From an uncultured Chloroflexia bacterium (GTDB taxonomy: Bacteria > Chloroflexota > Dehalococcoidia > GIF9 > UBA5629), in NCBI GenBank assembly GCA_963842805.1, contig CAWJIA010000013.1:123-64122 (forward strand): DNA of 64,000 nt. The letters run 5' to 3'. A program made the position numbers and the translations under genes. Each line of letters begins with the position of its first letter. The first letter of the stretch is position 1. This document shows, piece after piece, positions 4,838-32,846 of the stretch. The notes below the pieces were generated by a model. The model was given only the letters and a program-made list of their open reading frames with translations. It did not search any database and was not told the DNA's origin.

Positions 4838-4856
4838 GTTTAAGAAGGTTACCGAT

Positions 4857-9335: not shown

Positions 9336-9347
9336 AGAAGTTTAGAA

Positions 9348-17168: not shown

Positions 17169-17272
17169 CAGGTAAAGGATATCTCCACAATTATCAAGGA
17201 ATCAATGGTACCATAACGACAGAACCTTTTGCTGACGTTTGTGCTAAAGATAGTTTATGTGTAGCCAGTAAT

Positions 17273-18443
17273 TTACAATAGTATTATAGAAACGATAATC
17301 CCTACTATTACTACCCAGTAGATTTCTACCTTTAAGAACAGGGCAACAAAGGCGGCCAGTGATATCACTATGCGCAATAAATCCCAGGGTATTTTTAAAG
17401 CGAATAACAAGGTAACAGCTAATAAAAGACCGACGAATGAGCTTAATACACCTCTTACTGCTCTATTAAAATAGGGAAAGCCGCGCAACTTATCGAAATA
17501 GGGGGCGACACCTGCCACGATCAGAAAAGAAGGTAAAAATACACTGACCGTGGCAATAATTCCTCCTAAAAGACCATAAAGTATATAGCCAATAAAGGTA
17601 GCAGTAATTACGATAGGGCCGGGTGTTATCTGCCCCAGGGCAATTCCATTCAAAAATGTCTTACTATCCATCCAGGAGTTTACGTTCACTACCTCATGGA
17701 ACATGAGAGGAACGGAAGTGAAACCGCCTCCGAAGGCAAATAAGTCAACACGGGCCATAAGCGCGGCCAGGTTGAAAAGACTACGGTCAGTAAAGAAGAG
17801 AATAATGAATCCTATTATGGCAGCCAATATTATAATCAGCACAGACCGGTATGTGGTCATTCGTTTAGCTGGCGTTACACGATAGGGCGATGGTTCCCTA
17901 AGGTAAAGCAAGATTCCCACAATTGCAGATAGTAGTATTACAAAGAATGGATTTACCCCGAAGCCAAAAAGAATACCGGCAGCAATTGCGATAGCCGCAC
18001 CTTTCCAGTTCTTAATAGACGCCATGCCGAATGTAATAGCTGCGTTAGCTACTATGGACACCACAATGGTTTGCAACCCATTAAATGCGGATATCATCAT
18101 CGGTAAATTCAGGGTTTGCATATAAAAAATCGAGAGGACCATCATGAACAAAAATGCAGGTAAACCGAAGCCTATGAAGCTGACCGCAGCCCCTGCCTCT
18201 CACCCTTAGCCCCACATAGGCAGCAACCTGCATGGCAGTAGACCCAGGCACCATCTGGCAGAAAGCAACACCAGTGCGGAATAACGCATCATCCATCCAT
18301 TTCTTTTGCTCGACGGCCATCTTGCGAATGAAGGCCACCATGGCAGGGCCGCCAAATGCGGTAGCCCCTAACCGGAGAAAAGACAGGAATAACCTGGCAA
18401 GAGAAGGTGCCTTGTCGGCTGATTGATTTTGAACTTGTTCCAT
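17273..18443 (-). pseudogene. chrA: Chromate transporter ChrA (two CHR domains), frame broken in a G4/C4 run at 18190-18193
   Basis: ORF 18081..18443 reads LRLGATAFGGPAMVAFIRK...GSTAMQVAAYVGLRVRG and then nonsense. In the +1 frame it continues GAAVSFIGFGLPAFLFMMVLS... into ORF 17273..18151, which has the second FGGGFTSVPL motif. Confidence 0.8.
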
Positions 18444-18506
18444 AGGTTATTGTCTATATAATAGCCTTCTTTTAAAAGACTACGTACGAATATCATCATT
18501 CAAGAA

Positions 18507-19340
18507 TTAATCCGGCAATGCAAAACTAGTGCCTGCATTATTAAGGAAGAATGAATCCGGAAACTCCTGAGCCAGTCGCACCGAGGCGGCAAAGCCTGTA
18601 CAGTGAGAAACGCCTAATTTTTGAATCCCCATATCCTTTAGACCGGCGATGGTCCTTTCAATACGCTCCTCATTAGCACGAAAGAGGTGAGTACCGCCGA
18701 TCACGGCATATATAAATTCTTTACCTGTTATTTTCTGTGAGTGACGTAAAGTATTAATTAAACCACGGTGAGCACACCCGAGAATGACTACTAAGCCATA
18801 TTCTGTATCGATCACCAATGCAAGATCATCAGCAAGTTTGTCCGGCAGCATCTGTCCATCATCTTTAACAAACAGATTTCCGTCAATTTTCTCGTAATCC
18901 GTGAGCATCTCAATTTCACCAGTTGTGGTTATGTGTTCAGCAATGGAAACCGGTTTCCCACTAAAAATGAAACGGGCACCACAGCTTTCTAATTCTTTGC
19001 GCGAAAAGGGCATGCCTATATACTGAAAATCATCTCGATTACGTTCGGCGAATTTAGAAGTCAAAATATCCGGGTGAGCAATTACATCAACGTTTTTATT
19101 TCTTTTTAAAACTTCGAAAAGGCCGCCGGTATGGTCTACATGACCGTGGCTTAATACAACGATACGGATCCCTGTAAGATCGATACCCATGAGGTCAGCA
19201 TTATAAACTGTTGATATGCTCATCCCGGTGTCCATAAGGATTTTCTTCCCATCCGCTTCGACTAATATACTTAGGCCCCACTCGCCAAGAAAACCATAAT
19301 TTGCCGTATTCTCACTTAACGTGGTTATTCGAATTTCCAC
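18507..19340 (-). CDS. MBL-fold metallo-hydrolase (COG1237-like)
   Basis: It has LSHGHVDHTGG, ILGCAHRG and VSHCTG. Confidence 0.8.
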   Translation of the reverse strand: MEIRITTLSENTANYGFLGEWGLSILVEADGKKILMDTGMSISTVYNADLMGIDLTGIRIVVLSHGHVDHTGGLFEVLKRNKNVDVIAHPDILTSKFAERNRDDFQYIGMPFSRKELESCGARFIFSGKPVSIAEHITTTGEIEMLTDYEKIDGNLFVKDDGQMLPDKLADDLALVIDTEYGLVVILGCAHRGLINTLRHSQKITGKEFIYAVIGGTHLFRANEERIERTIAGLKDMGIQKLGVSHCTGFAASVRLAQEFPDSFFLNNAGTSFALPD

Positions 19341-19368
19341 GATATATCCTCCTTTCCTTGGCTATGTT

Positions 19369-19521
19369 TCACATCAATATTTGCCGAGCCATATTTACTG
19401 CCTTCCTTACGATCATAGCCGTCAGATCCTGAGGTGTAAAGACAACAATAACACCTGAGATTGGCAGCGATTGCAAAACGGCGAGAGGAGCATCAGCGGT
19501 CCCTGGTGGCAGATCGACCAC
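19369..19521 (-). pseudogene. Internal fragment of an Mrp/NBP35/MinD-family Fe-S cluster carrier ATPase
   Basis: The minus strand reads VVDLPPGTADAPLAVLQSLPISGVIVVFTPQDLTAMIVRKAVNMARQI. This matches the Walker-B/switch region of the family. The P-loop and C-terminal half are absent, and an in-frame TAG lies just upstream. Confidence 0.5.
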
Positions 19522-19533
19522 TCTGTTCTACAA

Positions 19534-20427
19534 TTAGTGCAACCTGTTGATCAGGTTGGGCAGTTTGCCTTCCGTATAAAGCTTAACCGCTTCGTCAATA
19601 TTCGTGATATCGGTTACTATGGGCTCTATTTTATAGCTCTTCATACTTTCGTAGGCACCCATGCCCATACCGCCAGCTATTAACACCTGGCTGTCTTTAA
19701 TCGCCTCAGCCATGCTTGCATGTTTTTGCTGGGAAGCGGCGTCAAAACCGTGCTTGGCTCCATGAGCTGAATGTGGGCCCTCAGCAGATGCAAAGTGGCT
19801 GTGACCCATCTTTGGCCGCTTCTCTTTGCCGGTTATTTTGCCATTCTCCACCGTGTAAACGACGTACCAGGATGCCCGTCCGAAATGTTGGCTTATAGTA
19901 ATCTCATCGTCTGTAATAACTGCAATTTTCATACCAGTTTTTCTCCTTATCTCAATTTCGTTATATTGCTCAAGGCTATTCCGATCTTCACTTGCCATAC
20001 CTCCACTGATTGCCACAGGCACCAGCGCGTCATTGCATAGCTTGTGGCAAATAGAGCAGGATTCAGTCGACCACCTGGCCAACATATCTGCAGGCAAATC
20101 CAGGTTGCAACCAATCCTGCAGCAACATTGCGGTGCCTCCAATTCAAAGGAGCCGCCATCTATTTTTATAGCTTTGCCACCTAGCAGACCTACAGCTATC
20201 TTTTTCCTGGCCGACTCAAGTATTCGCTGAAAAGTCGCTCGCGAAACATTCATGTATTTGGCACATTGTTCCTGATCCAAATTCTCAATATCCCGCAGCC
20301 GCAGGGATTCTACTTCCTCAATAGTAATGCAGACTTCATCCAGCGTTCGCAGAGGCACACCAGCCGGCTTAAAGTAAGTAGTATCCGGCAGGAAAGCTAC
20401 CCTACATCTCTTCTTGGGTCGAGGCAT
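19534..20427 (-). CDS. DUF134 (UPF0251) DNA-binding domain fused to a NifB/NifX-family (dinitrogenase FeMo-cofactor-binding-like) domain
   Basis: The N-terminus reads MPRPKKRCRVAFLPDTTYFKPAGVP...MNVSRATFQRILESARKK. A Cys-rich linker (CCCRIGC...CSICHKLC) follows. The C-terminus reads MKIAVITDD...HFGRAS...VLIAGGMGMGA. I place the start at ATG 20427. Confidence 0.85.
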   Translation of the reverse strand: MPRPKKRCRVAFLPDTTYFKPAGVPLRTLDEVCITIEEVESLRLRDIENLDQEQCAKYMNVSRATFQRILESARKKIAVGLLGGKAIKIDGGSFELEAPQCCCRIGCNLDLPADMLARWSTESCSICHKLCNDALVPVAISGGMASEDRNSLEQYNEIEIRRKTGMKIAVITDDEITISQHFGRASWYVVYTVENGKITGKEKRPKMGHSHFASAEGPHSAHGAKHGFDAASQQKHASMAEAIKDSQVLIAGGMGMGAYESMKSYKIEPIVTDITNIDEAVKLYTEGKLPNLINRLH

Positions 20428-20535
20428 GTAAACAGCATCCTTGTATTTTGTGCATATGCTCATAACAATTATATTTTAGCTATTATATTCTGTCAAGTGG
20501 ATACAACTTGATAGGGGACAAAATATATTGTATAC

Positions 20536-20565
20536 TTGCAATAGTTCGCAACTATTATATTGCAA
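20536..20565. promoter_or_regulatory. Imperfect inverted repeat in the divergent promoter region (candidate operator)
   Basis: The repeat is TTGCAATAGTT-cgc-AACTATT(ata)TTGCAA. The motif CTATTATATT also occurs at about 20480-20490. Confidence 0.3.
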
Positions 20566-20673
20566 TTGAATGAATTGCCCGACTACGTTTCGCCATTTAC
20601 TTGCGAGGTTCCCTTACTGCAAACGAAGGATCGGGACTAACTAAATAATAAAAACAAAAAGGAGTGAGCAAAT

Positions 20674-21204
20674 ATGGCTGACCTGGCAGTTATTACAGAA
20701 GAGAAACGTCATGAAGCTGAGAGGAAAATAGAAGGCCTATCAATGGTCGTCTTTTCCGGCGACCTGGATAAGGCACTGGCAGCTTTTATTATTGCCAACG
20801 GAGCCGCTGCCATGGATATCCCGGTGACCATGTTCTTTACGTTTTGGGGGACGAATATTATGCGGCGTGAAGGTCCGATCAAGCTTCTGGAAAAGAAGAC
20901 CTTCATGGAGAAAATGTTCGGTTGGATGATGCCCAGGGGGCCCAATAAGCTGGTGCTATCCAAAATGAACATGGGAGGAATGGGGACAATGATGATGAAG
21001 AATGAAATGGCAAAGAAGAATGTCTATAATTTGCCCAAATTGATTCAAGAGGCTCGTGATCAGGGCATAAGGATGATAATCTGCACGATGTCCATGGATA
21101 TTATGGGTTTCAAAAAGGAAGAGCTTCTGCCGGGCGTCGAATTCGGCGGCGTAGGTAAGTTCATGGCAAGCGCCGATGATAGCAGGACGACCTTATTTAT
21201 ATAG
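20674..21204 (+). CDS. DsrE/DsrF-like family protein (COG2210 'peroxiredoxin-family' type)
   Basis: The sequence shows LSMVVFSGDLDKALAAFIIANGAAAMD...TFWG...ICTMSMDIMG. An AAAGGAG RBS is present. Confidence 0.7.
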   Translation: MADLAVITEEKRHEAERKIEGLSMVVFSGDLDKALAAFIIANGAAAMDIPVTMFFTFWGTNIMRREGPIKLLEKKTFMEKMFGWMMPRGPNKLVLSKMNMGGMGTMMMKNEMAKKNVYNLPKLIQEARDQGIRMIICTMSMDIMGFKKEELLPGVEFGGVGKFMASADDSRTTLFI

Positions 21205-21245
21205 GTCGATAGTACGTATTGTTTTATTGTTATGGAGCATAGAAT

Positions 21246-21575
21246 ATGGAAGTAAATCCCAACCACATTTTTGAATTGCAGGCGGAGATGCTAAGCGTTC
21301 TTTCCAATCCAAAACGTCTCATGATACTCAAAGTACTGGGCAAAGGGGAAAAAACAGTGGGAGAAATTGCTGTGCAGGTTGGCATCGAGATGCAGAACGC
21401 ATCTCAACATCTCCGTATCATGAAGGCCCGTGGGATAGTGACGGCCAGAAGGGATGGTCAGACGGTCTATTATGAGCTTACGACCCCTATCTTCGCGGAA
21501 TGCTGTGAACTAGTGCGGAAGGCCATCGTGGAAGACCTGGAAAAAAGAAGAGCGCTCATACAGGATATTAAATAG
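21246..21575 (+). CDS. ArsR/SmtB-family transcriptional regulator
   Basis: The sequence LSVLSNPKRLMILKVL...TVGEIAVQVGIEMQNASQHLRIMKARGIV...DGQTVYYEL is typical of the family. Confidence 0.85.
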   Translation: MEVNPNHIFELQAEMLSVLSNPKRLMILKVLGKGEKTVGEIAVQVGIEMQNASQHLRIMKARGIVTARRDGQTVYYELTTPIFAECCELVRKAIVEDLEKRRALIQDIK

Positions 21576-21602
21576 AATTGAATTATCACGGGAGGTTAAA
21601 GG

Positions 21603-21857
21603 ATGACCGAAATCGATTTGAAAAACATGAAAACAGACAAAACTGTAGATGCCCGCGGCACGGCTTGCCCTGGTCCGCTCCTGGAAGCTAAACGTGCCAT
21701 GGCGGCAGTGCCCATGGCCGGTATACTTGAAGTGTTGTCTTCCGATATCGGCACAACTGAGGATCTTCCCCTATGGGCCAACAAGGTTGGACATCAGTAT
21801 CTGGGAACCATCGAGGAAGCGGGTTATTGGAGGGTCTTCGTCAAAAGAGGCAAGTAG
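21603..21857 (+). CDS. tusA: TusA/SirA-family sulfurtransferase
   Basis: DARGTACPGPLLEAKRAM contains the CPxP active-site motif. The protein is 84 aa. Confidence 0.85.
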   Translation: MTEIDLKNMKTDKTVDARGTACPGPLLEAKRAMAAVPMAGILEVLSSDIGTTEDLPLWANKVGHQYLGTIEEAGYWRVFVKRGK

Positions 21858-22270
21858 TGATTTCACACAGTTCGTCCCAAAGCAGTGGTCCGAAGATATT
21901 GGTCTTCTCCACTAACAATATATCCGATCCCGGTATCGACCTGGCGGGAAGTTCACATATGGACTATCCAACTTCCGTCCAGGTCATAGCGTTGCCATGT
22001 TCCAGCGGTATTAATCCCACATGGGTATTACATGCGCTTGAAGCCGGGTTCGATGGAGTCTTCATCGCCGCCGATGGGACTGACTGCGCTTACCTGCCGG
22101 ACTGCACCGACCGTACGGCATCTATAGTTCAGAAGGCGCAAGACCTGATCAAAGAACATGGCCTCGATCCCAGAAGATTAAAAATGGCTGCCATTTGCTC
22201 GGTCTGCTCCGAATCCTTCGTGTCACATATGGATAAATTTCATAAGGCACTCAGCGAGCTTAAAACATAA
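21857..22270 (+). CDS. MvhD-like protein lacking the N-terminal CCxxC motif
   Basis: KILVFSTNNISDPGIDLAGSSHMDYPTSVQVIALPCSSG...GFDGVFIAADGTDCAYLPDC aligns with the mvhD at 9348, but FCCLYCAY is replaced by FSTNNISD. The start is uncertain; I propose GTG 21857, which overlaps the tusA stop. Confidence 0.65.
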   Translation: MISHSSSQSSGPKILVFSTNNISDPGIDLAGSSHMDYPTSVQVIALPCSSGINPTWVLHALEAGFDGVFIAADGTDCAYLPDCTDRTASIVQKAQDLIKEHGLDPRRLKMAAICSVCSESFVSHMDKFHKALSELKT

Positions 22271-22291
22271 GGTGCGCTAAGCAGAACTGTC

Positions 22292-25018
22292 ATGGAAAAA
22301 AACTCTAACGTAGATTATGATGCCCTGATTGTAGGGGCTGGCATAGCAGGTATGGAATCGGCTCTGACGCTGGGCGACATGGGATTCAGGGTATTGCTTG
22401 TGGAAAAGGAAGCCAGCATAGGCGGGAAAATGATCCTGCTAAGCAAAGTATTTCCGACGCTTGACTGCTCGAGTTGCATCTCCACACCCAAAATGGCAGC
22501 CACGGCCAATCATCCAAACATTAAAGTATCCACATATTCGGAGATCGATGAAATATCACGAAAGGAAGACGGCAGCTTTGCCATTGCTCTCCGGCGAAAA
22601 CCCAAATTTGTCGATCCGCTAAAATGCACGGGTTGTGCACAGTGTGAAACCGCCTGTACCGTAGCCATTGCCGACGAATTCAATTCGGATTTGATAGCAC
22701 GAAGGGCGGCCCATATCGCCTTTCCCCAGGCTGTACCCAAGAAGGCAATTATAGACCGCAAGGGCACATCGCCGTGCTCATTTACCTGTCCTGCAGGAGT
22801 AAAACCCCACGGATACGTCTCACTGGTTAGAGCAGGAAAATACGATGAAGCATTCCGCTTACACCTGGAGGATGCCCCACTTCCCGGATGCCTGAGCAGG
22901 GCATGCTACGCTCCCTGCGAGGAAGAGTGCACTAGAGGACAGCTGGAGGGGTCTGTTCCCATAAGGGCGATCAAGCGTTTTATGGTTGACCGTTATTATG
23001 CCGGCCATCCGGAACCAGAATACGGCATCCCCGACAAATTGAACGGCAAAAGGGTAGCAATCGTCGGATCGGGCCCTGCCGGTCTATCTGCAGCTTATTT
23101 CCTGGTCCGTTCAGGATACTCTGTCACCGTCTTTGAGTCGGAACCGGAAGCGGGCGGCATCATGCGTTGGGGCATACCGTCCTACCGATTACCCAAGGAC
23201 ATATTAACTCGCGACATCAAGAACATCACCTCCCTCGGCGTGAAGATCACCACCGGCACAAAGGTCGGCAGCACGCAATATCTGAAGGAGGACGGCTTTG
23301 ACGCGGTATTCCTGGCCGTCGGCAATACCGGGGGACGCCTCATATCTATCCCGGGAGAGGATCTGAATGGAGTTGTCGATTGCATGGATTTCCTGAAAGC
23401 TTGTAATTCCGGAAGCAGGTCAGACATAAAAGGAAAGAAGGTGGTGGTGATAGGTGGGGGCAATGTCGCAATAGACTGCGGACGCAGTGCTCTCCGGCTG
23501 GGCGCACGTGAGGTACAGCTGGTCTGCCTTGAGTCCGGTGAAGAAATGCCCTCCCATAGATGGGAGATTGAACAGGCAATTGATGAGGGTATTGCCATAA
23601 ACTGTTCATGGGGCCCCAAATCTATCAGTGACGTTGGAGGAACCAAAGGGGTTGAGTTCGTTTGCTGCACATCTGTTTTTGACGCCGGCGGAAAATTTAA
23701 CCCTTCGTTCGACGAGTCCAAAAGGAAGTCTTTCGACGCCGACATGGTCATAATGGCCGTCGGCCTTCTTCCAAATACTTCTCCATTCGCGAATGAGCTT
23801 GAATTGAACCGTAACAAGACCATTTGCGCTGATAAGGAAACGCTACAGACTTCGAAACCCTGGGTTTTCGCCGGCGGAGACGCCGTAACAGGACCGGCCA
23901 TGATAGTACAGGCCGTCGGCCAGGGCAAGAGAGCCGCCTATTACATAGATCGTTACCTGCAGGGAATGCCTATGAATTCAGGCCATTTCGATGAACGGTT
24001 GCCCATGGTAGACAAAGAGTCCGTCCTCAGCCGACCAGCAGGTGATATCTCTGTTAGAAAACCTGTATCCCCCAAGCTTAAACCCGTTGAGGAGTGGACA
24101 CGTTCGTTTGATGAATATGAGATAACCATGACTGAGGATGAGGCCCGCTACAGCTCCAACCGTTGTCTTGATTGCGGCGGTTGTTCGCAGTGCCAGCAAT
24201 GCGTAGGTATCTGCCCGGCCGATGCCATATCCTTTGACATGCGGACAGAGATGGAGGATGTAACTGCTGGTTCTGTAATGCTGTCAACGGGGTTCGATAT
24301 CTTCAACGCCGCCAACAAACCGGCTTTGGGATACGGAAGGTTCCCTAATGTTATCAATGCCATGCAGATGGACCGTATTTTGGCCCCTACACGGCCATAC
24401 AATGCGGTAATCCGTCCCTCTGATGGAAAAGCCCCCAGCAATATAGCCTTTGTTCTATGTACCGGCTCCAGGGATCAAAAGGTCAATAACCGTATATGCT
24501 CGCGTGTTTGCTGCATGTATTCTCTTAAGCAGGCGCAGCTCCTTATGGGCGCCTTACCTCTGGCTGATATCACAATCTACTACATCGATATACGCGCTTT
24601 CGGCAAAGGTTACGACGAGTTTTATGAGCAAGCAAAAGGGATGGGGGTCTATTTTGTCAAAGGCAAGGTAGCCAGAATCGAAGAAACGACTGAGCAGAAC
24701 CTGAAGGTATTTTACGAGGATATCGAAGGTGATGGAGGTACTAAGCAGGCCGAGCATGATCTTGTCGTGCTGTCGGTTGGAGTGCTTCCCACGCAGGGCG
24801 CCCTATGCCTGTTCAAAGACGGCTCGCTGGAAGCGGACCCCTATTCCTATATCCGCGAAGTGGACGAAGACCTTGAACCGGGCAAGACAAGTATTGACGG
24901 CGTTTTCGTTGCAGGGACAGCGGCTGCTGCGCGTGACATACCTGATTCTATTCTGCATTCGGATGCCGCTGCGGCACAGGTGGCTGCCTATCTAAAGAGA
25001 TCAAGGGACGGCTCATGA
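22292..25018 (+). CDS. HdrA-like flavoprotein with an embedded GltD/NfnB/SudA-type NAD(P)H module
   Basis: The sequence shows VGAGIAGMESALTL...LDCSSCI, CTGCAQCETAC, ACYAPCEEEC, IVGSGPAGLSAAYFL...GGIMRWGIPSYRLPK, VIGGGNVAIDCGRSA, FAGGDAVTGPAMIVQAV and CTGSRD...ICSRVCC. It is colinear with residues about 1-900 of the 1492-aa HdrA. Confidence 0.9.
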   Translation: MEKNSNVDYDALIVGAGIAGMESALTLGDMGFRVLLVEKEASIGGKMILLSKVFPTLDCSSCISTPKMAATANHPNIKVSTYSEIDEISRKEDGSFAIALRRKPKFVDPLKCTGCAQCETACTVAIADEFNSDLIARRAAHIAFPQAVPKKAIIDRKGTSPCSFTCPAGVKPHGYVSLVRAGKYDEAFRLHLEDAPLPGCLSRACYAPCEEECTRGQLEGSVPIRAIKRFMVDRYYAGHPEPEYGIPDKLNGKRVAIVGSGPAGLSAAYFLVRSGYSVTVFESEPEAGGIMRWGIPSYRLPKDILTRDIKNITSLGVKITTGTKVGSTQYLKEDGFDAVFLAVGNTGGRLISIPGEDLNGVVDCMDFLKACNSGSRSDIKGKKVVVIGGGNVAIDCGRSALRLGAREVQLVCLESGEEMPSHRWEIEQAIDEGIAINCSWGPKSISDVGGTKGVEFVCCTSVFDAGGKFNPSFDESKRKSFDADMVIMAVGLLPNTSPFANELELNRNKTICADKETLQTSKPWVFAGGDAVTGPAMIVQAVGQGKRAAYYIDRYLQGMPMNSGHFDERLPMVDKESVLSRPAGDISVRKPVSPKLKPVEEWTRSFDEYEITMTEDEARYSSNRCLDCGGCSQCQQCVGICPADAISFDMRTEMEDVTAGSVMLSTGFDIFNAANKPALGYGRFPNVINAMQMDRILAPTRPYNAVIRPSDGKAPSNIAFVLCTGSRDQKVNNRICSRVCCMYSLKQAQLLMGALPLADITIYYIDIRAFGKGYDEFYEQAKGMGVYFVKGKVARIEETTEQNLKVFYEDIEGDGGTKQAEHDLVVLSVGVLPTQGALCLFKDGSLEADPYSYIREVDEDLEPGKTSIDGVFVAGTAAAARDIPDSILHSDAAAAQVAAYLKRSRDGS

Positions 25019-26748
25019 CCGACAGGACAGACCGAAAACTGGGCGTATATATTTGCCACTGCGGCGGCAATATTTCCGACTACGTGAACGTGGAAAAGGT
25101 GGTGGACGCAGTTAAGGGAGAGCCTGATGTGGTCACGGTCAAGACCAACATATTTACTTGCTCTGATGCAGCACAGCAGGACATGATCTCGGAAATTAAG
25201 GAAATGAAATTAGACGGGATTGTGATCGCTTCCTGTTCGCCCAAGCTTCACCTGAATACATTCAGAGCGATGGCGGAGCGTGCCGGTCTCAATCCCTATC
25301 AGTACACCCAGGTGAATATCCGTGAACAATGTTCCTGGGCCCATACTCATTCAAAGGATGCAGCAACGGACAAAGCAATCAAATTGGTCCGGGCGGGCAT
25401 CGCCCGCACAGGGTTGTCAATGCCCCTCAGCCGGCTGCGCGTCGATACTACGCCTGCTGCACTGGTCATAGGCGCCGGGGTGGCGGGATTGCGTGCCGCC
25501 CTTGCACTATCTGATATGGGCATATCTGTACATGTAGTCGAACTGGCAGAGCAGCCAGGTGGAATGGTAGGGAAATGGGGAAAGATGTTCCCCAACGGAA
25601 AGAAGGGCTCAGATATTATTGGTTCACTGGTGAAGAAAGTCCGCGAACGTGAAAACATCAACTTGTTTGTCAACGCGAAAATAATCGAGAAATCCGGCAA
25701 TGTTGGAAAATTTTCAATAAAGCTATTAGTTAATAATAAGGATACGATTCCCCTCACTGTAGGCGGCATAATTGTGGCTACCGGTTTTGACCCATACGCT
25801 CCGCTTAGCGGTGAATTCGGCTTTGGACTATCTGGTGTGATAACGCTGCCTGAATATAAAGAGCTGCTCGCCCAATCGGCCGGATCTTTGAAATATAATG
25901 GCAGAGATATCGGCACCGTCACTTACATATACTGTATTGGATCAAGGGAGCATTTCAAGGAGGATAACCCTCACGCTTATTGTTCCCGCTATTGCTGCAC
26001 TGCCGGCGTGCACGCAGCTCTGCGCACCGCTGAATTGACACCCGGGGCACAGCAGTTTCACATTTTCCGCGATATGCGCACCTACGGCAAATATGAGGTG
26101 CTTTACGACGAGGCTTTAGAAAAGGGCTCTGTTTTCCTGCGCTATGAAGAAAGCGAGCCTCCGGTGGTAACCCTCGAGAACGGCAGCCTGAAAGTCAGAG
26201 TTAAAGACCGCCTCACCGGCGGAGAAGAAATTGAAATTGCCACTGACCTTGTAGTACTGGTCACAGGTATGGTTCCCAGGACCAATCCCGAATTGGTTAA
26301 CGTGCTCAAACTCCCGGTGGGAAAAGACGGTTTCTTCAATGAAATCCATCCCAAATTGAAGCCGGTTGAGACCGTGATAGACGGGCTTTTCATCTCTGGA
26401 GCGGCGCAGGGCCCAAAGACGCTTGCCGAAAGCGTGGCCAGTTCCATGGCTGCATCAGCCAAGGTGGCTGGCCTTCTGCTTAAAGGATATATTGATCTGG
26501 AGCCGCTTATAGCCAAAGTCGATCCAGACCTGTGCGTGTGGTGCGGCGCCTGTGAGCATGTCTGCCCGTACGGAGCGGTCCAGCATATCAATTGCGACGG
26601 CAAAGAAATCGCAGACATAAACCCCGTCCTGTGCAAAGGGGAAGGGGCATGCGTCCCGGTTTGTCCCAAACAGGCCATAGATGTTGCCGGGTACACAAAT
26701 AAGCAGATTGAGTCTATGATTGAAGCTCTTGCGAGGGAGGCTGCCTGA
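25015..26748 (+). CDS. HdrA-like flavoprotein (second unit, with a C-terminal 2x[4Fe-4S] domain)
   Basis: The sequence shows GVYICHCGGNISDY, IASCSPKLH, NIREQCSWAH, IGAGVAGLRAALAL, YCSRYCC, and CVWCGACEHVCP...CKGEGACVPVCP. It has an ATGA overlap with the preceding gene. Confidence 0.9.
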   Translation: MTDRTDRKLGVYICHCGGNISDYVNVEKVVDAVKGEPDVVTVKTNIFTCSDAAQQDMISEIKEMKLDGIVIASCSPKLHLNTFRAMAERAGLNPYQYTQVNIREQCSWAHTHSKDAATDKAIKLVRAGIARTGLSMPLSRLRVDTTPAALVIGAGVAGLRAALALSDMGISVHVVELAEQPGGMVGKWGKMFPNGKKGSDIIGSLVKKVRERENINLFVNAKIIEKSGNVGKFSIKLLVNNKDTIPLTVGGIIVATGFDPYAPLSGEFGFGLSGVITLPEYKELLAQSAGSLKYNGRDIGTVTYIYCIGSREHFKEDNPHAYCSRYCCTAGVHAALRTAELTPGAQQFHIFRDMRTYGKYEVLYDEALEKGSVFLRYEESEPPVVTLENGSLKVRVKDRLTGGEEIEIATDLVVLVTGMVPRTNPELVNVLKLPVGKDGFFNEIHPKLKPVETVIDGLFISGAAQGPKTLAESVASSMAASAKVAGLLLKGYIDLEPLIAKVDPDLCVWCGACEHVCPYGAVQHINCDGKEIADINPVLCKGEGACVPVCPKQAIDVAGYTNKQIESMIEALAREAA

Positions 26749-26999
26749 TGGAAAGGAAACCGGCGCGCGATAACGCCGAGGTGCTGCGGGACGAAATGTA
26801 TATGCGTGACCGGATAATCGGAATCCTGGCAGAGGGTCCCAAAACCATATCGGAGATTGCAGGTGAACTTGGTTACCCATCCGATGAAGTGCTCAAATGG
26901 GTCATGGCTATGAGACGATATGGAGTTATCACAGAAATGCCCAAGGCCAGGGCCGATGACTATTATCATTACAAACTGCGGGACCAGGAAGAAAAATGA
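26748..26999 (+). CDS. Small winged-helix (wHTH) protein embedded in the hdr-like operon
   Basis: RDRIIGILAEGPKTISEIAGELGYPSDEVLKWVMAMRRYGVITE looks like a wHTH. The gene overlaps the stop of the previous gene and the start of the next one. Confidence 0.6.
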   Translation: MERKPARDNAEVLRDEMYMRDRIIGILAEGPKTISEIAGELGYPSDEVLKWVMAMRRYGVITEMPKARADDYYHYKLRDQEEK

Positions 27000-27307
27000 T
27001 AAAAACAGACACGCAATTTGTTGAATCCGTGAAGGCGGGCACTGAATTCAATGCCTTCGCCTGCATCAACTGCGGTTCCTGCACGGCGCTTTGCCCCCTG
27101 GGTATCGATCTGCACCCCAGGACCCTATTCCGCTACGTACTGATTGGAGCACGGGACAAAGTATTGCAAAATACTGCCAACATCTACTCATGCCTTTTGT
27201 GCAAAATGTGCGAGGATAATTGTCCCGCGGACGTGCCAATTGCCGAAAATATCAGGTCGCTACGCAGCTATATCAACCGGGATGTTTTTCGGCTCTCAAG
27301 AGGTTAA
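26996..27307 (+). CDS. HdrC-like 4Fe-4S dicluster protein
   Basis: It has the motifs CINCGSCTALCP and CLLCKMCEDNCP. Confidence 0.8.
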   Translation: MIKTDTQFVESVKAGTEFNAFACINCGSCTALCPLGIDLHPRTLFRYVLIGARDKVLQNTANIYSCLLCKMCEDNCPADVPIAENIRSLRSYINRDVFRLSRG

Positions 27308-27310
27308 TTC

Positions 27311-28282
27311 ATGCCGTTACCGATACATAACATTTTAGGAATACTCTCAGATAATCTGAAGAACAGAAAAGGCGTTATCCCTCTTTCCCCGGGGAAAGTT
27401 GACGCCTGGACCCGCGGACTGGATATACCCTTTGGCGGGGATACCGTTATCTACACTGGCCAGATGTATCAATTGATACCGTCGATAAATTCGATGTCCG
27501 CCGTGATGGCCAAATTCGAAGATTCATGGGTTACTCGATTTTTCGGCATGGGCCGCATCATGAATAGAATTATAAATATCTCATGGTTAATGGCTCTCGG
27601 TTCCGGCAAAGAGCAAAGGGTGTATGACAACATTTTGAAGAACATTGCCATCCTGCTTAAAACGGCCGGGGTGAAATTCAGTTATCTATATGGAAAGGAG
27701 CTGTACTCCGGAGCACTGGTCTACGATGAGGGGCTTGACGACGCATTTGTGGAGCATGCCCGAAGGGTATACCGGACATTCAAAGAGAATGGCGTTAAGC
27801 AGGTCATCACGGTGGACCCTCATACTACCAATATGTTGAAAAGCGTATACCCTAAAATTATCAATGGGTATGACCTTATTACAAAGAGCTACCTGGAAAT
27901 ACTCGCAGAAAAAGACCTGAAATGCAGAAAACAGATTCCTTTGGAACTCGTTGTCCACGATTCTTGTGTCTATGCAAGGCACGAAGGTATAGTTGATGAA
28001 CCGCGCCGTTTGCTGAAAACTGCCGGGGCAACGATTCATGTGCCTGAGTTATCCGGAAGGTTAACGCAGTGCTGCGGCGGCCCCCTGGAATCATTATTCC
28101 CCGGTAAGGCCTATGAAGTCGCCGGGAAACGCGTGGCCCAGTTAGCGGACTGCGGCAACAGCATTGTGACAATGTGTCCAATATGCATGGCCAATTTGAA
28201 GCGTGTGGCTAATAATACTACACTGGAAATCAAGGATATATCTGAACATCTTGTTAACGGTTACTGCATGCCCGACTTATGA
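27311..28282 (+). CDS. HdrB-like protein with a single intact CCG domain
   Basis: The C-terminal half has HDSCVY...TQCCGGPLE...MCPICMANL. The N-terminal half (VIYTGQMYQLIP...) lacks the cysteines. Confidence 0.75.
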   Translation: MPLPIHNILGILSDNLKNRKGVIPLSPGKVDAWTRGLDIPFGGDTVIYTGQMYQLIPSINSMSAVMAKFEDSWVTRFFGMGRIMNRIINISWLMALGSGKEQRVYDNILKNIAILLKTAGVKFSYLYGKELYSGALVYDEGLDDAFVEHARRVYRTFKENGVKQVITVDPHTTNMLKSVYPKIINGYDLITKSYLEILAEKDLKCRKQIPLELVVHDSCVYARHEGIVDEPRRLLKTAGATIHVPELSGRLTQCCGGPLESLFPGKAYEVAGKRVAQLADCGNSIVTMCPICMANLKRVANNTTLEIKDISEHLVNGYCMPDL

Positions 28283-28375
28283 TTAGGGGAAATGAGGAAT
28301 GGCAGGGATCCATAAAATTAGCTTCACAATTTCAGTCAAGCGATAAAACATTAAGGAGGTTGAGACAAGAAGACT

Positions 28376-28738
28376 ATGGCAGAGAAAATGGTAATTTTTG
28401 CGACTCATGGAGGTGAAGACCCCGAGAAGGCCACGTTGCCCTTTGTTGTGGGTAACGCCGCGTTGGCAATGGACGTCCAGGTGACTATAGTGCTTCAATC
28501 AATGGGCGTTATGCTTGCCAAAAAGGGATGCTACGATCACATCTACGCATCCGGTTTCGATTCAGTCAAGAAAATGGTTGACAGCTTCATCGAGTTCGGC
28601 GGCCAGATTTTCGTATGCATTCCGTGCATTGAGTCCAGGAAGATAACCCCTGATTTACTGATTGACAAGGCACAGTTGGTTAAGGCAGGAAAAGTTGTCC
28701 AGGAAGTGCTGGAAGCTAAAGCGGTGTTGAACTACTAG
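28376..28738 (+). CDS. DsrE/TusD-family sulfur-relay protein
   Basis: The sequence shows MVIFATHGGEDPEKATLPFVVGNAALAMD...FVCIPCIESR. The protein is 120 aa and has an AAGGAGG RBS. Confidence 0.8.
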   Translation: MAEKMVIFATHGGEDPEKATLPFVVGNAALAMDVQVTIVLQSMGVMLAKKGCYDHIYASGFDSVKKMVDSFIEFGGQIFVCIPCIESRKITPDLLIDKAQLVKAGKVVQEVLEAKAVLNY

Positions 28739-28837
28739 TACCGGTTATCCGGCGGGTATCTTTACCGGTGGAAAGTCGGCCTTTATAACTGCAGAAGTCA
28801 TTACCATTAGACGATGAATACTCATGTGGAATAGCAG

Positions 28838-29638
28838 CTATGTCTGCTCATCTATTCTAGATACTAGGTTACGTTGCCGTCTGAACAGCGCAAAGAAAAT
28901 AACAACGGCAACTACTATGACTCCTATGGCGGTCAACTGTGCCTGTTTAAGGCCAAGGAATACCACCTCATTGTCTCGCCATGTAAACACGATTATTTGA
29001 CTCATAGAATAGCCAAGTATGTAGATAAAAAATAGTATACCCGGCTTCAGCTTGTTCCGTAGCAGCCAGAGAAGACCGAATAGCAGTATGTCTATTAAAG
29101 CTTCATAAACAGCGGCTGGGTGATAGGCTATATCGTGTCGAGGAGCGAATGAATTGGGGTTAGCGTATACCACTCCCCAAGGAAGATTAGTGGGATAGCC
29201 GATAACATCCCCGTTGATAAAGTTACCAATACGGCCGAAGAACTGGCCGACTACAGCAAAGAGTGCAGTGACATCCAGGAGTTTCAAGATTGAGATTTTC
29301 ATACGCCAGCCTGCTATCAGCAGTACAATGACCACGGCAAAGATGGCCCCATAAAAAGCCATCCCGCCTTCCCAGAACGCCAGGATGCGCCACGGCTCCG
29401 CTAGATACGGTCCCAGAGGTTGCTGGAGGACGAAGTATAGTCTGGCGCCGATAAGACCGGCTAGAACGGCCCAATAGACGACCGTTTCCATCTGACTCTG
29501 AGCCAACCCTTTGGACCTGGCATAAGGCCAGGCTGTAAGCAGACCGGCCACAATGCCCACCACGTACATCAAGCCATACCAGTGGACGGCTATGGAACCG
29601 ATGGAAAAAACTACTGGATTGACATTAACAATTATCAT
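28838..29638 (-). CDS. lgt: Prolipoprotein diacylglyceryl transferase
   Basis: The sequence shows VHWYGLMYVVG, GARLYFV, WEGGMAFYG, GRIGNFINGD and HPAAVYEAL. I place the start at ATG 29638, which has a GGGGAAG RBS. Confidence 0.85.
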   Translation of the reverse strand: MIIVNVNPVVFSIGSIAVHWYGLMYVVGIVAGLLTAWPYARSKGLAQSQMETVVYWAVLAGLIGARLYFVLQQPLGPYLAEPWRILAFWEGGMAFYGAIFAVVIVLLIAGWRMKISILKLLDVTALFAVVGQFFGRIGNFINGDVIGYPTNLPWGVVYANPNSFAPRHDIAYHPAAVYEALIDILLFGLLWLLRNKLKPGILFFIYILGYSMSQIIVFTWRDNEVVFLGLKQAQLTAIGVIVVAVVIFFALFRRQRNLVSRIDEQT

Positions 29639-30147
29639 AAATTCTTCCCCTAAAACTAACCTATCTTGGGATGCTCCTGTAAAGCTAGAATAGTTAACGT
29701 CATCCTTTTCATAAACTAATACCTGGCAATTCCAATATTTGTAAACTAAGTCTACCACGTATAATGCATTCCAAAGAAACGGGATCAAAAATGAGGGGGT
29801 TTTTTCGAATGTGGAAATATCCGAAGAATTAAGCCCTATAACAGTTGACTACGTGCTTAGGGGTAAGCTAGCGCAAATCACGGGCAGGAAAAAGTATCTA
29901 GTAATATATGATAGATTATGCACGTAGTTCGCAAAGACATTAAGATTCAGTATCAGCATATATTGTGATAGAATGATTTGCACATCTGTAATGAGCTGAC
30001 CAACTCCAATGAAATAGGACCAAGCGTAAGGATTACATCAGAACTGGTGAAAGCACCAAACGGGTATTAAGTTTCACTACCCGGGGGCGAAAATAACCGC
30101 TACCTGAGATCTCCAAGATATGTGGGGGCCATAATATAGATATCAGC

Positions 30148-30969
30148 ATGATTTCACTGGGGATTATCTCAATACTTGTTGGTTTCCTGGGTGCGCTCAC
30201 AGGATTGGGTGGGGCCAGCATACTTATCCCTGTACTGACACTGTTCGGTGTCCCGGTCAAGGTTGCCATAGCTTCTTCCATGGTCAGCATCATTGCCACC
30301 TCAGGAGGCGCGGCCTCGGCTTATATCAGGGACCGCATCACCAATATAAAAATCGCCATGTTCCTGGAGATATTCACCATCACCGGTGCAATTATTGGCG
30401 CAACTATAACGACCTTCATAGCCCCTGTATTCCTTTATTTTTTCTTTGCCGCATTTCTGCTCACCTCTTTTTCCAGGGTACACCTGTTTGCCCAGGACTA
30501 CGTTCCCGCCGCACATACCCAGGATAAAGTTTCCGCAGCATTTGAACTGCAGGGCAGCTATTTCGATGAAGCTCGAAAACAAGTCGTTGAATACAAGGCG
30601 ACCAACTCCCTCCTCGGAGGATTGGGGATGGCGGTAGCAGGGCTGGCAGCAGGCATGCTGGGAATAGGAGCGGGCGCCTTTAAGGTAACCGTCCAGGAGC
30701 ATATCCTGAAGCTCCCGCCCAAGGTATCCAGCACTACCAGTAACTTCATCATAGGTATGACCGCCCTGGCAGCAACCAGCGTCTACCTTTTTTCCGGGTT
30801 TTTAAATTTAACCCTGATGGCCCCCATTGCCATTGGCACTACAGTGGGTTCACTGCTGGGCGCAAGATTTTTAAACAGGCTGAACGATAAAACCGTCAGG
30901 GTCCTTTTCTTTGTCATAGTCGCCATACTAATAGTACAGATGCTGTACAAAGGGATAACTGCAATATGA
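30148..30969 (+). CDS. TauE/SafE-family (DUF81) anion/sulfite exporter
   Basis: It is a multi-TM protein with GFLGALTGLGGASILIPVL and a second GIGAGAFKV repeat. Confidence 0.8.
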   Translation: MISLGIISILVGFLGALTGLGGASILIPVLTLFGVPVKVAIASSMVSIIATSGGAASAYIRDRITNIKIAMFLEIFTITGAIIGATITTFIAPVFLYFFFAAFLLTSFSRVHLFAQDYVPAAHTQDKVSAAFELQGSYFDEARKQVVEYKATNSLLGGLGMAVAGLAAGMLGIGAGAFKVTVQEHILKLPPKVSSTTSNFIIGMTALAATSVYLFSGFLNLTLMAPIAIGTTVGSLLGARFLNRLNDKTVRVLFFVIVAILIVQMLYKGITAI

Positions 30970-31355
30970 TTAGTTTAGGCAGTGGCGAATCAAAGCTCGA
31001 AACAGCGATCAGCTATTTGCTTATAGCCGGTATTGCTGTTAGCCTAGCGCTGATCATCGTCGGATTGGTCTTTTTCTACCACTCGTACGGCAACCTTGGT
31101 ATATCCCTGAATGACAGTTCTCTGTATATCCATGGACAGAACTTCTTCAGTTTTATTTACGATCTGTTTTCCAGTCGTTACACGCAAAACAATGCAATCC
31201 TATTCATATCACTGGGGATTGCGATGTTGCTTCTCACTATTTACATGAGGGTGATTGTATCTATACTTTATTTTGTCTGGAAAAAGGATATCAGATATAC
31301 CGTTATAACCGCTTTTGTGCTAATTGCCATCACGCTGAGCTTGGTCCTGCACTAG
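30966..31355 (+). CDS. DUF1634-like small membrane protein (a usual partner of DUF81/TauE)
   Basis: It has 4 predicted TM segments, an ATGA overlap with tauE, and a size and topology typical of DUF1634. Confidence 0.55.
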   Translation: MISLGSGESKLETAISYLLIAGIAVSLALIIVGLVFFYHSYGNLGISLNDSSLYIHGQNFFSFIYDLFSSRYTQNNAILFISLGIAMLLLTIYMRVIVSILYFVWKKDIRYTVITAFVLIAITLSLVLH

Positions 31356-31576
31356 CTATTTTGACATCTTTTATATGCTTACTCTAAAAAGTACAGCGAT
31401 TTACTACCTGCCTGGCAAAAGTTCGTCGATAGGCAACGACTTTTGCGTTGCCCACTCAGTGCGATGATAATCTGGCTAAGCGTTAACTATCCATCGCATA
31501 AACGTCAATCCTAAATAAATAACACCTCAAGCCGTGACATTTGATATAATTGCTCCAAAACTTTAGGGAGGCTCCC

Positions 31577-32846
31577 TTGCCAGACAAAGCGGACATGTTC
31601 CCGCACGATAATTCGCTCGAAGAAGCTGCCGGCCCCGCAAAGGGAGAAGAAGCTGAATGAGAGGCTCAGGCAGCTTATTGAATACGCTTTTAAAAATGCC
31701 CCCGGCTTCAAAGCACGCATGGAGGCGGCGGGCATCGGGCTGGCGGATGTTAAGTCCATAGCCGACCTGCCAAAGATACCTGTTCTGCGCAAAGATGATT
31801 TGATCCAGTTACAAAAGGAAAATCCTCCCTTCGGAGGATATCTGGCCGTACCCCTGAGCGAGGTCGAGCGTATCTACCAGTCCCCCGGCCCCCTGTTCGA
31901 TCCGCAAAGGAAGATCAGGGCGAGCCTGGATACCGCCGGAACCGGCAAGGGGCAGATCGTCATGAATACCTGGTCGTACCACATTACGCCAGCCGGCATG
32001 ATTATGGACCGAGTTTTAAGGGGAATGGGCTTTACGGTTTTCCCCGCTGGCACGGGCAATACCGAGCTTCAGGTACAGATCATGCACGATCTGAAAGTTA
32101 GCGGGTTCGTGGGCACACCCTCCTTCCTGGCGGCCATCATCAGGAACGCAGAGGAGATGGGCTACGACTTTAAGAGGGACTTCAACCTGAAATTCGCCAT
32201 GGTCTTCGGCGAGATGGGCGGCGATGCATTACGCAAAATGTTCACAGAGAAATACGGCATAGCCTGCCGGGGAGGAGACACCTACGTTACCGCCGATATC
32301 GGGGTTATCGCAACCTCCTGCAGTCAAAACGCTGGTATGCACATAAGTACCGACCTCATAGTCGAGATCGTCGACCCGGCCACGGGCAAGGCCGTCTCAG
32401 CCGGGGAGGTTGGTGAGATAGTCGTGACTCCCTTTGACGAGGTCTATCCCCTCATTCGCTTCGGGACAGGCGACCTCTCATCACTGGTAGGGGAGCCTTG
32501 CCCGTGCGGCCGGACGACACCCCGCCTGCCCAAGATCATGGGCAGGAGCGGCGACGCAGTCCGGGTACGCGCCATGTTCGTCCATCCGCGTCAGACCGAC
32601 GAGGTCATGGCAAAATATCCGGAGGTAGCCGCCTACCAGCTCATCGTGACCCGCAGGGAAAACCGCGATGAGATGCTGCTTCAGGTCGAGCTAGCCGCTG
32701 AACCGAAGGATAAAGAGGCCTGGCTGGAATCGCTTAAGAAGGACTTCCAGGGCGTCTGCAAGGTCAGGTTCGACAATATCGAGTATGTGAAAGCCGGCAC
32801 CATCGCTAAAGACGCCAGAAAGATAGTCGATAAACGCGTTTATTAA
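31577..32846 (+). pseudogene. Phenylacetate-CoA ligase / coenzyme F390 synthetase-family adenylating enzyme, N-terminus frame-broken in a C4 run at 31633-31636
   Basis: AGGGAGG (31565-31571) precedes a TTG at 31577, giving (M)PDKADMFPHDNSLEEAAGP in frame 2. Homology then continues in frame 0 (QREKKLNERLRQLIEYAFKNAPGFKARMEAAG...), joining track ORF 31719..32846. Confidence 0.75.

Follow-up and report, generated by a model that had tools for sequence, protein, structure and literature searches.

A widespread operon joining a predicted NAD(P)H-linked Hdr/Qmo-type complex to TusA and DsrE-family sulfur carriers

Ten co-directional genes at positions 20674-28738 of a 64,000-nucleotide (nt) stretch of DNA from an uncultured Chloroflexia bacterium (GTDB lineage Dehalococcoidia; GIF9; UBA5629) encode relatives of heterodisulfide reductase (Hdr) subunits together with TusA and DsrE-family sulfur carriers. 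The whole stretch, positions 123 to 64,122 of contig CAWJIA010000013.1 in GenBank assembly GCA_963842805.1, is referred to below as the window. The core gene order, tusA-mvhD-hdrA::gltD-hdrA-wH83-hdrC-hdrB, where wH83 is a winged-helix protein of 83 amino acids (aa), is shared by 92 unique loci, whose hosts belong to over 20 bacterial phyla and to Thermoplasmata. Judged from their sequences, the products may form an NAD(P)H-linked Hdr/Qmo-type complex that uses TusA/DsrE-bound sulfur, a reading which we hold with moderate confidence; that the net reaction is specifically the reduction of sulfane sulfur is a more tentative proposal.

An initial annotation of the window had placed ten co-directional genes with named domains here, and both the open reading frames (ORFs) on the + strand and the Pfam and NCBIfam profile searches used for domain assignment agree with it. 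In order, the genes encode a DsrE2-like sulfur carrier (20674..21204; 176 aa; Pfam DrsE_2 PF13686, 194 bits), an ArsR/SmtB-family regulator (ArsR/HTH_20; 21246..21575; 109 aa; HTH_metalloreg, 80 bits), the sulfur carrier TusA (21603..21857; 84 aa; Pfam, 72 bits; active-site Cys22 in RGTACPGP) and an MvhD/FlpD-like [2Fe-2S] adaptor subunit (21857..22270; 137 aa from GTG; Pfam FlpD, 104 bits). These are followed by a 908-aa HdrA of the 'L' or type III kind with a GltD/NfnB/StnC-type module (HdrA(908); 22292..25018; Pfam/NCBIfam and alignment to PDB 5ODC), a second HdrA of 577 aa (HdrA(577); 25015..26748; NCBIfam and the 5ODC alignment), wH83 (26748..26999; weak winged-helix matches in the profile searches), an HdrC-like 2x[4Fe-4S] subunit (26996..27307; 103 aa; Pfam/NCBIfam), an HdrB-like/EtfD-like CCG protein (27311..28282; 323 aa; Pfam CCG at residues 214-297 only) and a DsrE-type sulfur carrier (28376..28738; 120 aa; Pfam DsrE, 54 bits; Cys81 in VCIPC).

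The gene junctions, which had been read exactly, are a 4-nt overlap (25015/25018), a 1-nt overlap (26748), a further 4-nt overlap (26996/26999) and a 3-nt gap (27307/27311). The translational coupling deduced from them for the six genes mvhD to hdrB stands, but its extent was corrected to seven genes. The longest ORF for mvhD begins within tusA, at 21773. A GTG at 21857, with AGAGG upstream, overlaps the TAG stop of tusA (21855-21857) by one base; the product from this GTG has 137 aa, and gene calls in relatives are of 137-148 aa. The GTG is most likely the true start and 21773 an artefact of taking the longest ORF, so that tusA would be coupled too, and the seven genes from tusA to hdrB are joined without usable intergenic space. 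The putative divergent promoter/operator region at 20464..20673, between a DUF134 gene on the − strand and the operon, contains a promoter-like TTGATA-17-TATACT at 20508-20536 (+) and a perfect consensus TTGACA-17-TATAAT at 20496-20468 (−), both putative consensus matches, as well as inverted repeats at 20484-20494/20517-20527 and 20536-20543/20558-20565. No convincing + strand terminator was found before a weak one at 28833-28848, which together with the promoter-like site at 20508-20536 fits a single transcript. One operon is the best explanation of the region 20674-28738.

Conservation of the gene order in relatives had been set beforehand as a test of the proposed linkage. A species-level scan with one genome per GTDB species gave 207 encoding stretches (178 with a second query), and six-frame ORFs of all fetched loci were searched with the ten window proteins to give the 92 unique loci. 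These comprise 60 of an HdrCB type, 17 of a QmoC type and 15 truncated by contig ends, and the gene-presence counts refer to the 77 complete loci. The order tusA-mvhD-hdrA::gltD-hdrA-wH83 hardly varies among them: tusA is present in 75/77, immediately 5' of mvhD, and wH83 in 76/77, between hdrA and hdrC or qmoC. A DsrE-family gene occurs in the flank of 68/77, in variable position, and ArsR in 50/77. The order was thus found to be conserved in bacteria and archaea alike, and this synteny led us to reject chance juxtaposition of the genes.

HdrA(908) has thousands of database relatives, and the operon family as a whole is found in about 200 species-level genomes, mostly of uncultured wetland, sediment and subsurface lineages. 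Carriers include Dehalococcoidia (94-95% identity), Ignavibacteria, Kiritimatiellota, Lentisphaerae, Bacillota and Actinomycetota, and further Acidobacteriota, Myxococcota, Planctomycetota, several Proteobacteria and Thermoplasmata archaea. Four are cultured, namely Desulfotruncus arcticus, D. alcoholivorax, Pontiella sulfatireligans and a Pontiellaceae isolate. Most belong to lineages of anaerobic heterotrophs, and metagenome-assembled genomes (MAGs) of Sedimenticolaceae, Burkholderiales and Sterolibacterium also carry the cluster. HdrA identity across the domains of life is 63-66%, and G+C, which is 0.56-0.61 in 1-12 kb and 0.56 in 32-36 kb, falls to 0.45-0.52 in 16001-32000; together these values suggest that the operon family has spread horizontally. 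The low G+C at 16001-32000 fits acquired DNA around and including the operon. When the flanking ORFs of about 80 loci were clustered for transporters, rhodaneses, Apr/Dsr and LbpA, nothing was common to more than 10 loci, and the module is therefore self-contained.

Selenoprotein variants were considered and rejected, as no locus has an in-frame TGA and only a few have TAG or TAA interruptions. The latter interrupt mvhD, hdrA or dsrE2 in a few MAGs, at ~2783 in locus L017, ~10789 in L078 (on the same contig as L121) and ~13217 in L077 (on the same contig as L120); examples are RDLRT*GRNE (Tyr in others) and CAYL*DC (Pro in others). They could be sequencing errors, pseudogenes or recoding. The initial annotation knew of no characterised enzyme of this composition and none was found in a full-text literature search, in which no description of this cluster was found either, although an earlier mention in the HdrA review literature cannot be excluded.

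Both HdrAs were aligned to the methanogen HdrA of PDB 5ODC, and residue conservation was determined over 69-82 orthologs. HdrA(577) consists of an N-terminal Cys-rich domain, a flavin adenine dinucleotide (FAD)/TrxR-like domain and a C-terminal 2x[4Fe-4S] ferredoxin domain, and is without the inserted ferredoxin domain. In HdrA(908) the FAD/TrxR-like domain is accompanied by the inserted ferredoxin domain, which the GltD module interrupts, and the N- and C-terminal HdrA domains are missing. The DCxSC motif (DC(A/S)SC), which holds the Cys197 equivalent, is kept in 100% of HdrA(908) sequences and lost in HdrA(577); the Lys409 equivalent is Lys in 96% of HdrA(908) and His, Phe or Tyr, never Lys, in HdrA(577); and the Glu356 equivalent is Asp in 93% of HdrA(908) and Lys in the HdrA(577) of the window. 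The Cys197 equivalent is said to complete a cluster of the partner subunit, and Lys409 reportedly has a structural meaning as well. The tandem HdrAs that had been annotated are indeed present, and with this asymmetry of domains and residues they are better described as complementary halves of a canonical HdrA, which most likely form an obligate heterodimer. Lys409 of HdrA stabilises a charged flavin intermediate (PMC12054007), and the presence of Lys next to the FAD hints that only HdrA(908) of the two is bifurcation-competent. Independent support for complementary halves comes from a Rosetta-stone fusion in the same window, a 1492-aa paralog at 4857-9335 (+) that is a colinear fusion of HdrA::GltD (38% identity, full length) and an HdrA(577)-like protein (37%). 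At residue 543 of HdrA(577), where the last [4Fe-4S] motif (CKGxGAC) should have its second Cys, the window protein has Glu, and orthologs are dimorphic (Cys 42%, Glu 41%), which suggests a Glu-ligated or [3Fe-4S] cluster, in either case unusual, in about half of the family.

A Fer4_20 + Pyr_redox_2 module (residues ~158-625), whose cofactors by homology are NAD(P)H-FAD-2x[4Fe-4S], divides the HdrA match of the 908-aa protein at residues 157/627. The module had been recognised from the outset and is both real and conserved, with the FAD and NAD(P)H Rossmann motifs retained and the second of them, GGGN(V/S)A, present in 98% of orthologs. By the classical rule the GxGxxA form leans to NADPH, and on this motif the module leans the same way. 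Its closest solved relatives are StnC (289 bits) and the related 9BOV chain (310 bits), followed by NfnB (238 bits) and GltD. Unlike in StnC and NfnB, it is embedded in HdrA and neither fused to NuoG-like domains nor paired with NfnA. The flavin of NfnB bifurcates, whereas that of StnC only feeds electrons: the StnC module is a non-bifurcating NADPH entry, from which single electrons pass via [4Fe-4S] clusters to a separate bifurcating flavin (PMC10482914). With such a protein as the closest solved relative, the earlier suggestion that an NfnB module replaces a lipoamide route is unproven. The module interrupts the ferredoxin domain which serves methanogen HdrA as its low-potential exit, and the same insertion point has been noted for 'type III HdrA' (PMC12054007).

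The HdrC-like protein has eight invariant Cys in two CxxCxxCxxxCP motifs, and MvhD has five invariant Cys. The HdrB-like protein has a single Cys-bearing CCG motif and not two, with C219, C254, C255, C289 and C292 each at least 96% conserved, and its N-terminal pseudo-CCG half is well conserved and Cys-free in 53 orthologs. It has no match to the NCBIfam HdrB equivalog models, whereas a paralogous HdrB at 3959-4837 of the window scores 212 bits, itself below the 345-bit cut-off. The best match in sequence and fold is M. smegmatis EtfD (9OJN; E 6e-11, TMq 0.70); HdrB chains match with fold probability 1.0 and a TM of about 0.5, and overall the protein resembles EtfD (cluster D2) and LutA more than catalytic HdrB. 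Cluster ligands were mapped by placing the HdrB-like/EtfD sequence alignment on the ligand list of PMC13083937. By this alignment C219, C254, C255, C289 and C292 correspond to the D2 ligands C637, C672, C673, C709 and C712 of EtfD, and the invariant H171 to the D2 ligand H583; Y132, D169 and T172 stand in the places of the D1 ligands C538, C581 and C584, which appear to be lost. H171 and the run D169-P-H-T-T are invariant in 38 HdrB-like sequences. In EtfD, D2 is a fully coordinated, non-catalytic noncubane cluster, and D1 ligands are lost in FadF and DgcB too (PMC13083937). We infer that the HdrB-like protein holds one noncubane site of the electron-transfer type, with the EtfD D2 ligand set of five Cys and His171.

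Seventeen of the 77 loci have, in place of hdrC and hdrB, a single gene for a protein of 360-395 aa with an HdrC-like N-terminus and a membrane domain. These QmoC-like proteins match the qmoC model over their full length at 173-219 bits, below the 300-bit cut-off, and their loci keep TusA, MvhD, both HdrAs, wH83 and the DsrE2-like protein. An alternation of QmoABC and QmoAB-HdrCB is described in sulfate reducers (PMC10504309). The exchange suggests that HdrCB is an exchangeable electron entry or exit module, and as TusA and DsrE2 are retained when it is swapped for QmoC, it is simplest to suppose that the sulfur carriers work with the invariant core rather than with HdrB. In one QmoC-type locus (L034, 13371-14860) genes for an HgcA-like protein, with the NVWCSAGK cap-helix motif, and an HgcB-like ferredoxin were noted by eye directly after dsrE2, which puts mercury-methylation-like genes beside an ArsR/TusA/Hdr module.

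The same evidence bears on the view that the CCG cluster of the HdrB-like protein reduces TusA/DsrE-persulfide or a heterodisulfide, in the way that CoM-S-S-CoB is reduced in methanogens, with the QmoC loci a functionally different offshoot. The CCG motif with its five conserved Cys is intact, the fold match to HdrB is as strong as given above, and the gene for the 120-aa DsrE follows hdrB and is found in 17 HdrCB-type loci as against one QmoC-type locus. HdrB, however, binds both sulfur atoms with two clusters where only one is predicted here, the invariant His171 equals the EtfD His583 that completes D2 coordination, the equivalog models that do score the paralog at 3959-4837 find no match, and TusA and DsrE2 are kept in loci that have no HdrB at all. 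We therefore regard reduction at HdrB as unlikely, and the initial annotation's analogy to sHdr, with HdrB implied as the site of sulfane chemistry, is not sustained by the single EtfD-D2-like cluster and the QmoC replacement.

The complex that we favour, NAD(P)H-linked and supplied with sulfur by TusA and DsrE, draws on the state of the carriers themselves. TusA Cys22 is invariant in 78 sequences. Cys137 of the DsrE2-like protein (in ICTMSMD) is conserved in 98% of 44 orthologs; this protein scores 83 bits on the NCBIfam DsrE2 model, below its 210-bit cut-off, and matches PDB 3PNX (115 bits) and 2QS7 (60 bits). In the 120-aa DsrE, Cys81 is found in 100% and Cys84 in 95% of 19 orthologs, and there is a weak match to the DsrE3A structure 3MC3 (E 2e-4). 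Transfer of sulfur from DsrE3 to TusA is established in sHdr systems (PMC11094781). The ArsR protein matches the NCBIfam BigR model at 53 bits, below cut-off. It has vicinal Cys86-Cys87 in the window, Cys87 is 95% conserved, and orthologs have a second Cys at position 16 (70%) or position 37 (36%). We take Cys87 to lie in helix alpha5 by comparison with SqrR/BigR, and position 37 to align with their alpha2 Cys; the Cys pattern in part of the family fits a thiol or persulfide sensor like SqrR/BigR. wH83 has no Cys and has an invariant N-terminal R..EVLRDE motif. Its AlphaFold model (predicted local distance difference test (pLDDT) 86) is of an ArsR/SmtB-like winged helix, with SmtB, CzrA, SqrR and HlyU as the best folds. 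The protein is cluster-specific, since a database search returned 93 clusters, all orthologs, at 52% identity or more. No match to a known subunit was found: the database search gave nothing beyond these orthologs, and the winged helices that searches of the PDB by sequence and by fold brought up were all of a generic ArsR/SmtB kind.

The carriers need not be substrates. They, together with ArsR, could act in signalling, regulation or the protection of clusters from reactive sulfur, beside a general NAD(P)H-linked (con)furcating hub that connects NAD(P)H, quinone or a partner of HdrCB, and ferredoxin, with wH83 as an embedded regulator. The likeness of the HdrB-like protein to EtfD D2 and LutA, the interchange of HdrCB with QmoC and the repressor-like fold of wH83 are all compatible with this, and the paralogous HdrA::GltD-HdrA/MvhD/HdrCB module in the window has no sulfur carriers. 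It seems improbable, however, since mvhD is coupled in translation to tusA, a gene that 75/77 loci carry, and DsrE-family genes, whose active-site Cys is invariant, occur in 68/77; so tight a linkage across domains of life is typical of substrate carriers or subunits and not of accessory factors.

If the carriers do supply an Hdr/Qmo-type complex, its relationship to described systems has to be considered. A linkage of sulfur-relay proteins to an Hdr-like complex is otherwise known only from sHdr, but the architecture is closer to QmoAB-HdrCB/QmoABC, which belong to sulfate reducers and sulfur oxidisers, combined with an HdrL or type III NAD(P)H module. In Qmo complexes MvhD is fused to QmoB, whereas here it is a separate gene. 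As in Qmo, two distinct HdrA-like flavoproteins are paired with an MvhD-type [2Fe-2S] element, a sulfur-metabolic partner is served, and the third module is either QmoC (HdrC-like plus membrane cytochrome b) or soluble HdrCB, in the 17 and 60 loci counted above (PMC10504309). Unlike in Qmo, one HdrA has a GltD module, an additional winged-helix protein is encoded, the QmoC-like proteins fall short of the equivalog cut-off (173-219 against 300 bits) and the partners are tusA and dsrE in place of aprBA; nothing Apr-like was found in the window flanks and no conserved neighbour beyond the module. The GltD module within the inserted ferredoxin domain is shared with HdrL/type III HdrA (PMC12054007; HdrL, PMC12142623), but the described cases adjoin mvhADG, fdh or Wood-Ljungdahl genes, and both papers describe them without tusA/dsrE linkage, wH83 or a degenerate HdrB. 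EtfD/EMO, an HdrDE-like ETF:menaquinone oxidoreductase, provides the best sequence and structure match for the HdrB-like protein and the same D2 ligands (five Cys and His), and the loss of D1 ligands is shared with FadF and DgcB (PMC13083937). EtfD is, however, a single membrane protein (HdrC-like, CCG and cytochrome b) with electron transfer flavoprotein (ETF) as donor, whereas the CCG protein and the dicluster protein are here separate soluble subunits of an HdrA complex; the 323-aa HdrB-like protein has no cytochrome b or membrane-domain match, and no etfAB was seen among the flanking ORFs scanned. From methanogen HdrABC the complex differs in that HdrB has one CCG cluster site and not two, and in that the HdrA domains are spread over two paralogs where methanogens have one HdrA (homodimer). 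No hydrogenase (MvhA/MvhG) or Fdh donor genes were found in the flanks, though MvhD is present, and no YedE-like ORF of the YTD cluster (yedE-tusA-dsrE2-chp-chp) in the flanks or among conserved neighbours.

The sHdr systems have an ArsR-type regulator, sHdrR. They share with the present operon this type of regulator, the link of an Hdr-like complex to TusA and a DsrE-family protein, and a small gene between hdrA and hdrC-hdrB. The operon differs in having one hdrC and one hdrB rather than two pairs (hdrC1B1A-hyp-hdrC2B2), a single His-capped cluster in the HdrB-like protein, an MvhD, and large HdrAs with methanogen-type extra domains and the GltD module. The absence of a duplicated hdrC/B pair that had been noted at first holds for the operon, with the qualification that a paralogous hdrC-hdrB cluster lies elsewhere in the window (3396-10285). 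The absence of lbpA and lipoate-assembly genes was borne out among the ORFs scanned (~16-34 kb of the window) and among the conserved neighbours.

These comparisons also frame the opposite direction of electron flow, in which an LbpA-independent analogue of sHdr would oxidise TusA sulfane sulfur to sulfite or thiosulfonate and pass the electrons to NAD(P)+, or to quinone with QmoC. The TusA/DsrE association is as in sHdr, the order hdrA-small gene-hdrC-hdrB resembles hdrA-hyp-hdrC2-hdrB2, the cluster is found in the MAGs of Sedimenticolaceae, Burkholderiales and Sterolibacterium, and the window has a gene of the TauE/SafE sulfite-exporter family 1.4 kb downstream of the operon. TauE is not a conserved neighbour, however, and the lack of a second HdrB/HdrC pair, the single noncubane site capped by His like EtfD D2, the lack of lbpA and lipoate genes in the flanks and the predominance of anaerobic heterotroph lineages among carriers all make an oxidative role hard to favour. 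The reduction of NAD(P)+ from sulfane sulfur would also need added energy, and we give this direction a small probability.

The favoured reading, a complex that works with NAD(P)H and carrier-bound sulfur, can be drawn as follows. A multi-subunit flavin/iron-sulfur oxidoreductase would work with a TusA/DsrE relay under the control of a thiol-based ArsR-type repressor. The DsrE2-like protein and DsrE would collect sulfane sulfur (persulfide, polysulfide or thiosulfonate) and pass it to Cys22 of TusA, which is presumably made in coupled amounts with the complex and would present the sulfur to it. NAD(P)H would be oxidised at the GltD flavin, by homology, and single electrons would travel via the [4Fe-4S] clusters of the split ferredoxin domain to the FAD of HdrA(908). 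Two exits are conceivable, one from the HdrA(577) N-domain through HdrC to the HdrB-like protein, or through QmoC to quinone, and the other at the C-terminal ferredoxin domain of HdrA(577) or MvhD; MvhD, HdrC and the single EtfD-D2-type cluster would thus extend the electron wire. Speculatively, TusA-bound sulfur would be reduced to sulfide within the invariant core MvhD/HdrA(577)/wH83, possibly with flavin-based bifurcation. The sulfur-reactive site is placed there and not in HdrB because TusA and DsrE2 persist in the QmoC loci.

Several points weigh against this scheme. The invariant core has no spare conserved Cys once the cluster ligands are counted and no S-S catalytic site was found in it, and the one cluster of the HdrB-like protein is predicted to be capped by His, as is the non-catalytic D2 of EtfD. 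wH83, on the fold of its model, may not be a subunit but a second regulator. The potential of the sulfane/sulfide couple exceeds that of NAD(P)H by little, so that it is not obvious why simple persulfide reduction should require bifurcation or how it could pay for it. Among the carriers are both sulfur-oxidiser lineages and lineages that are not known to respire sulfur, so that either direction is conceivable. Regulation also varies: a sigma-54 activator and a histidine kinase are encoded upstream in the Desulfotruncus locus, where no ArsR match was found, and locus L003 has a sigma-54 activator with arsR still present.

A stronger form of the scheme would see in the operon family a class of energy-coupled sulfur enzyme not recognised before, an electron-bifurcating NAD(P)H:TusA-sulfur oxidoreductase. 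Electrons leaving exergonically, to quinone via QmoC or through the HdrCB branch, would drive the low-potential reductive cleavage of carrier-bound sulfur, for example of a TusA thiosulfonate or persulfide, in the invariant MvhD/HdrA(577)/wH83 core, and, if true, anaerobes without Dsr, among them Dehalococcoidia, Thermoplasmata, Kiritimatiellota and Actinomycetota, would have a hidden role in cryptic sulfur cycling. We consider this form, including its exit, its core cleavage and its cycling role, doubtful. A role with another chalcogen (selenium or tellurium) or a related toxic species, in which carrier-bound Se is reduced for assimilation or detoxification, is very improbable: the NCBIfam model 'diclust_near_Sec' (GltD + CCG protein near Sec genes) matches HdrA(908) and the HdrB-like protein, TusA has weak YedF matches, HdrA, MvhD and DsrE-like proteins are reportedly recurrent selenoprotein families, and there is an ArsR regulator and an upstream chromate-transporter gene, but TusA scores 72 bits as TusA against 29 bits as YedF, in-frame TGA occurs in no locus and no selD, yedE or sel genes are among the conserved neighbours.

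Elsewhere in the window, the separate paralogous cluster hdrC-hdrB-hdrA(fusion)-mvhD-metV-like (3396-10285), 11 kb upstream of the operon, has no sulfur carriers. It encodes, all on the + strand, an HdrC-like protein (3396-3962), an HdrB with two CCG domains (3959-4837), the HdrA fusion described above, MvhD (9348-9791) and a MetV-like protein with PF12225 (9788-10285), and is preceded by a glutamate-synthase-like large protein (31-3381, +; from the window edge; Glu_synthase/GXGXG). Clusters of the MetFV-HdrABC-MvhD type occur in acetogens, and we take the region 31-10285 to resemble their hdrCBA-mvhD-metVF clusters, but with a Glu_synthase/GXGXG partner and no metF seen. Upstream of the operon, a chromate-transporter ChrA (PF02417) is split into overlapping ORFs (17273-18151 and 18081-18443, −), which may be a frameshift or a pseudogene, and a metallo-beta-lactamase (MBL)-fold hydrolase is encoded at 18507-19340. 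The divergent upstream gene (19534-20463, −), behind the perfect sigma-70 consensus, encodes a DUF134 + Nitro_FeMo-Co (dinitrogenase FeMo-cofactor-binding-like) protein. Its homologs flank the cluster in eight loci of different lineages (L006, L007, L009, L016, L035, L040, L070 and L084), and among the recurrent neighbours outside the core it alone could have a role in regulation. Downstream, beyond a convergent lgt, the TauE/SafE gene and a DUF1634 gene (30148-31355, +) are not conserved beside the cluster elsewhere. Two further ORFs on the + strand, of 1075 aa (53226-56453) and 324 aa (37670-38644), had no Pfam match at E <= 1e-5.

Hdr-type complexes provide the principal examples of flavin-based energy coupling, and the accepted path of reactive sulfur in cells runs through TusA/DsrE relays. 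A conserved mobile module that joins the two and is wired directly to NAD(P)H, or alternatively to the quinone pool, would give sulfur a new way into central redox metabolism. As there are four cultured carriers, it would also be a tractable case for the study of HdrA heterodimers and single noncubane clusters. The module could explain unassigned sulfur turnover in wetland, sediment and subsurface lineages that have no obvious dissimilatory sulfur pathways.

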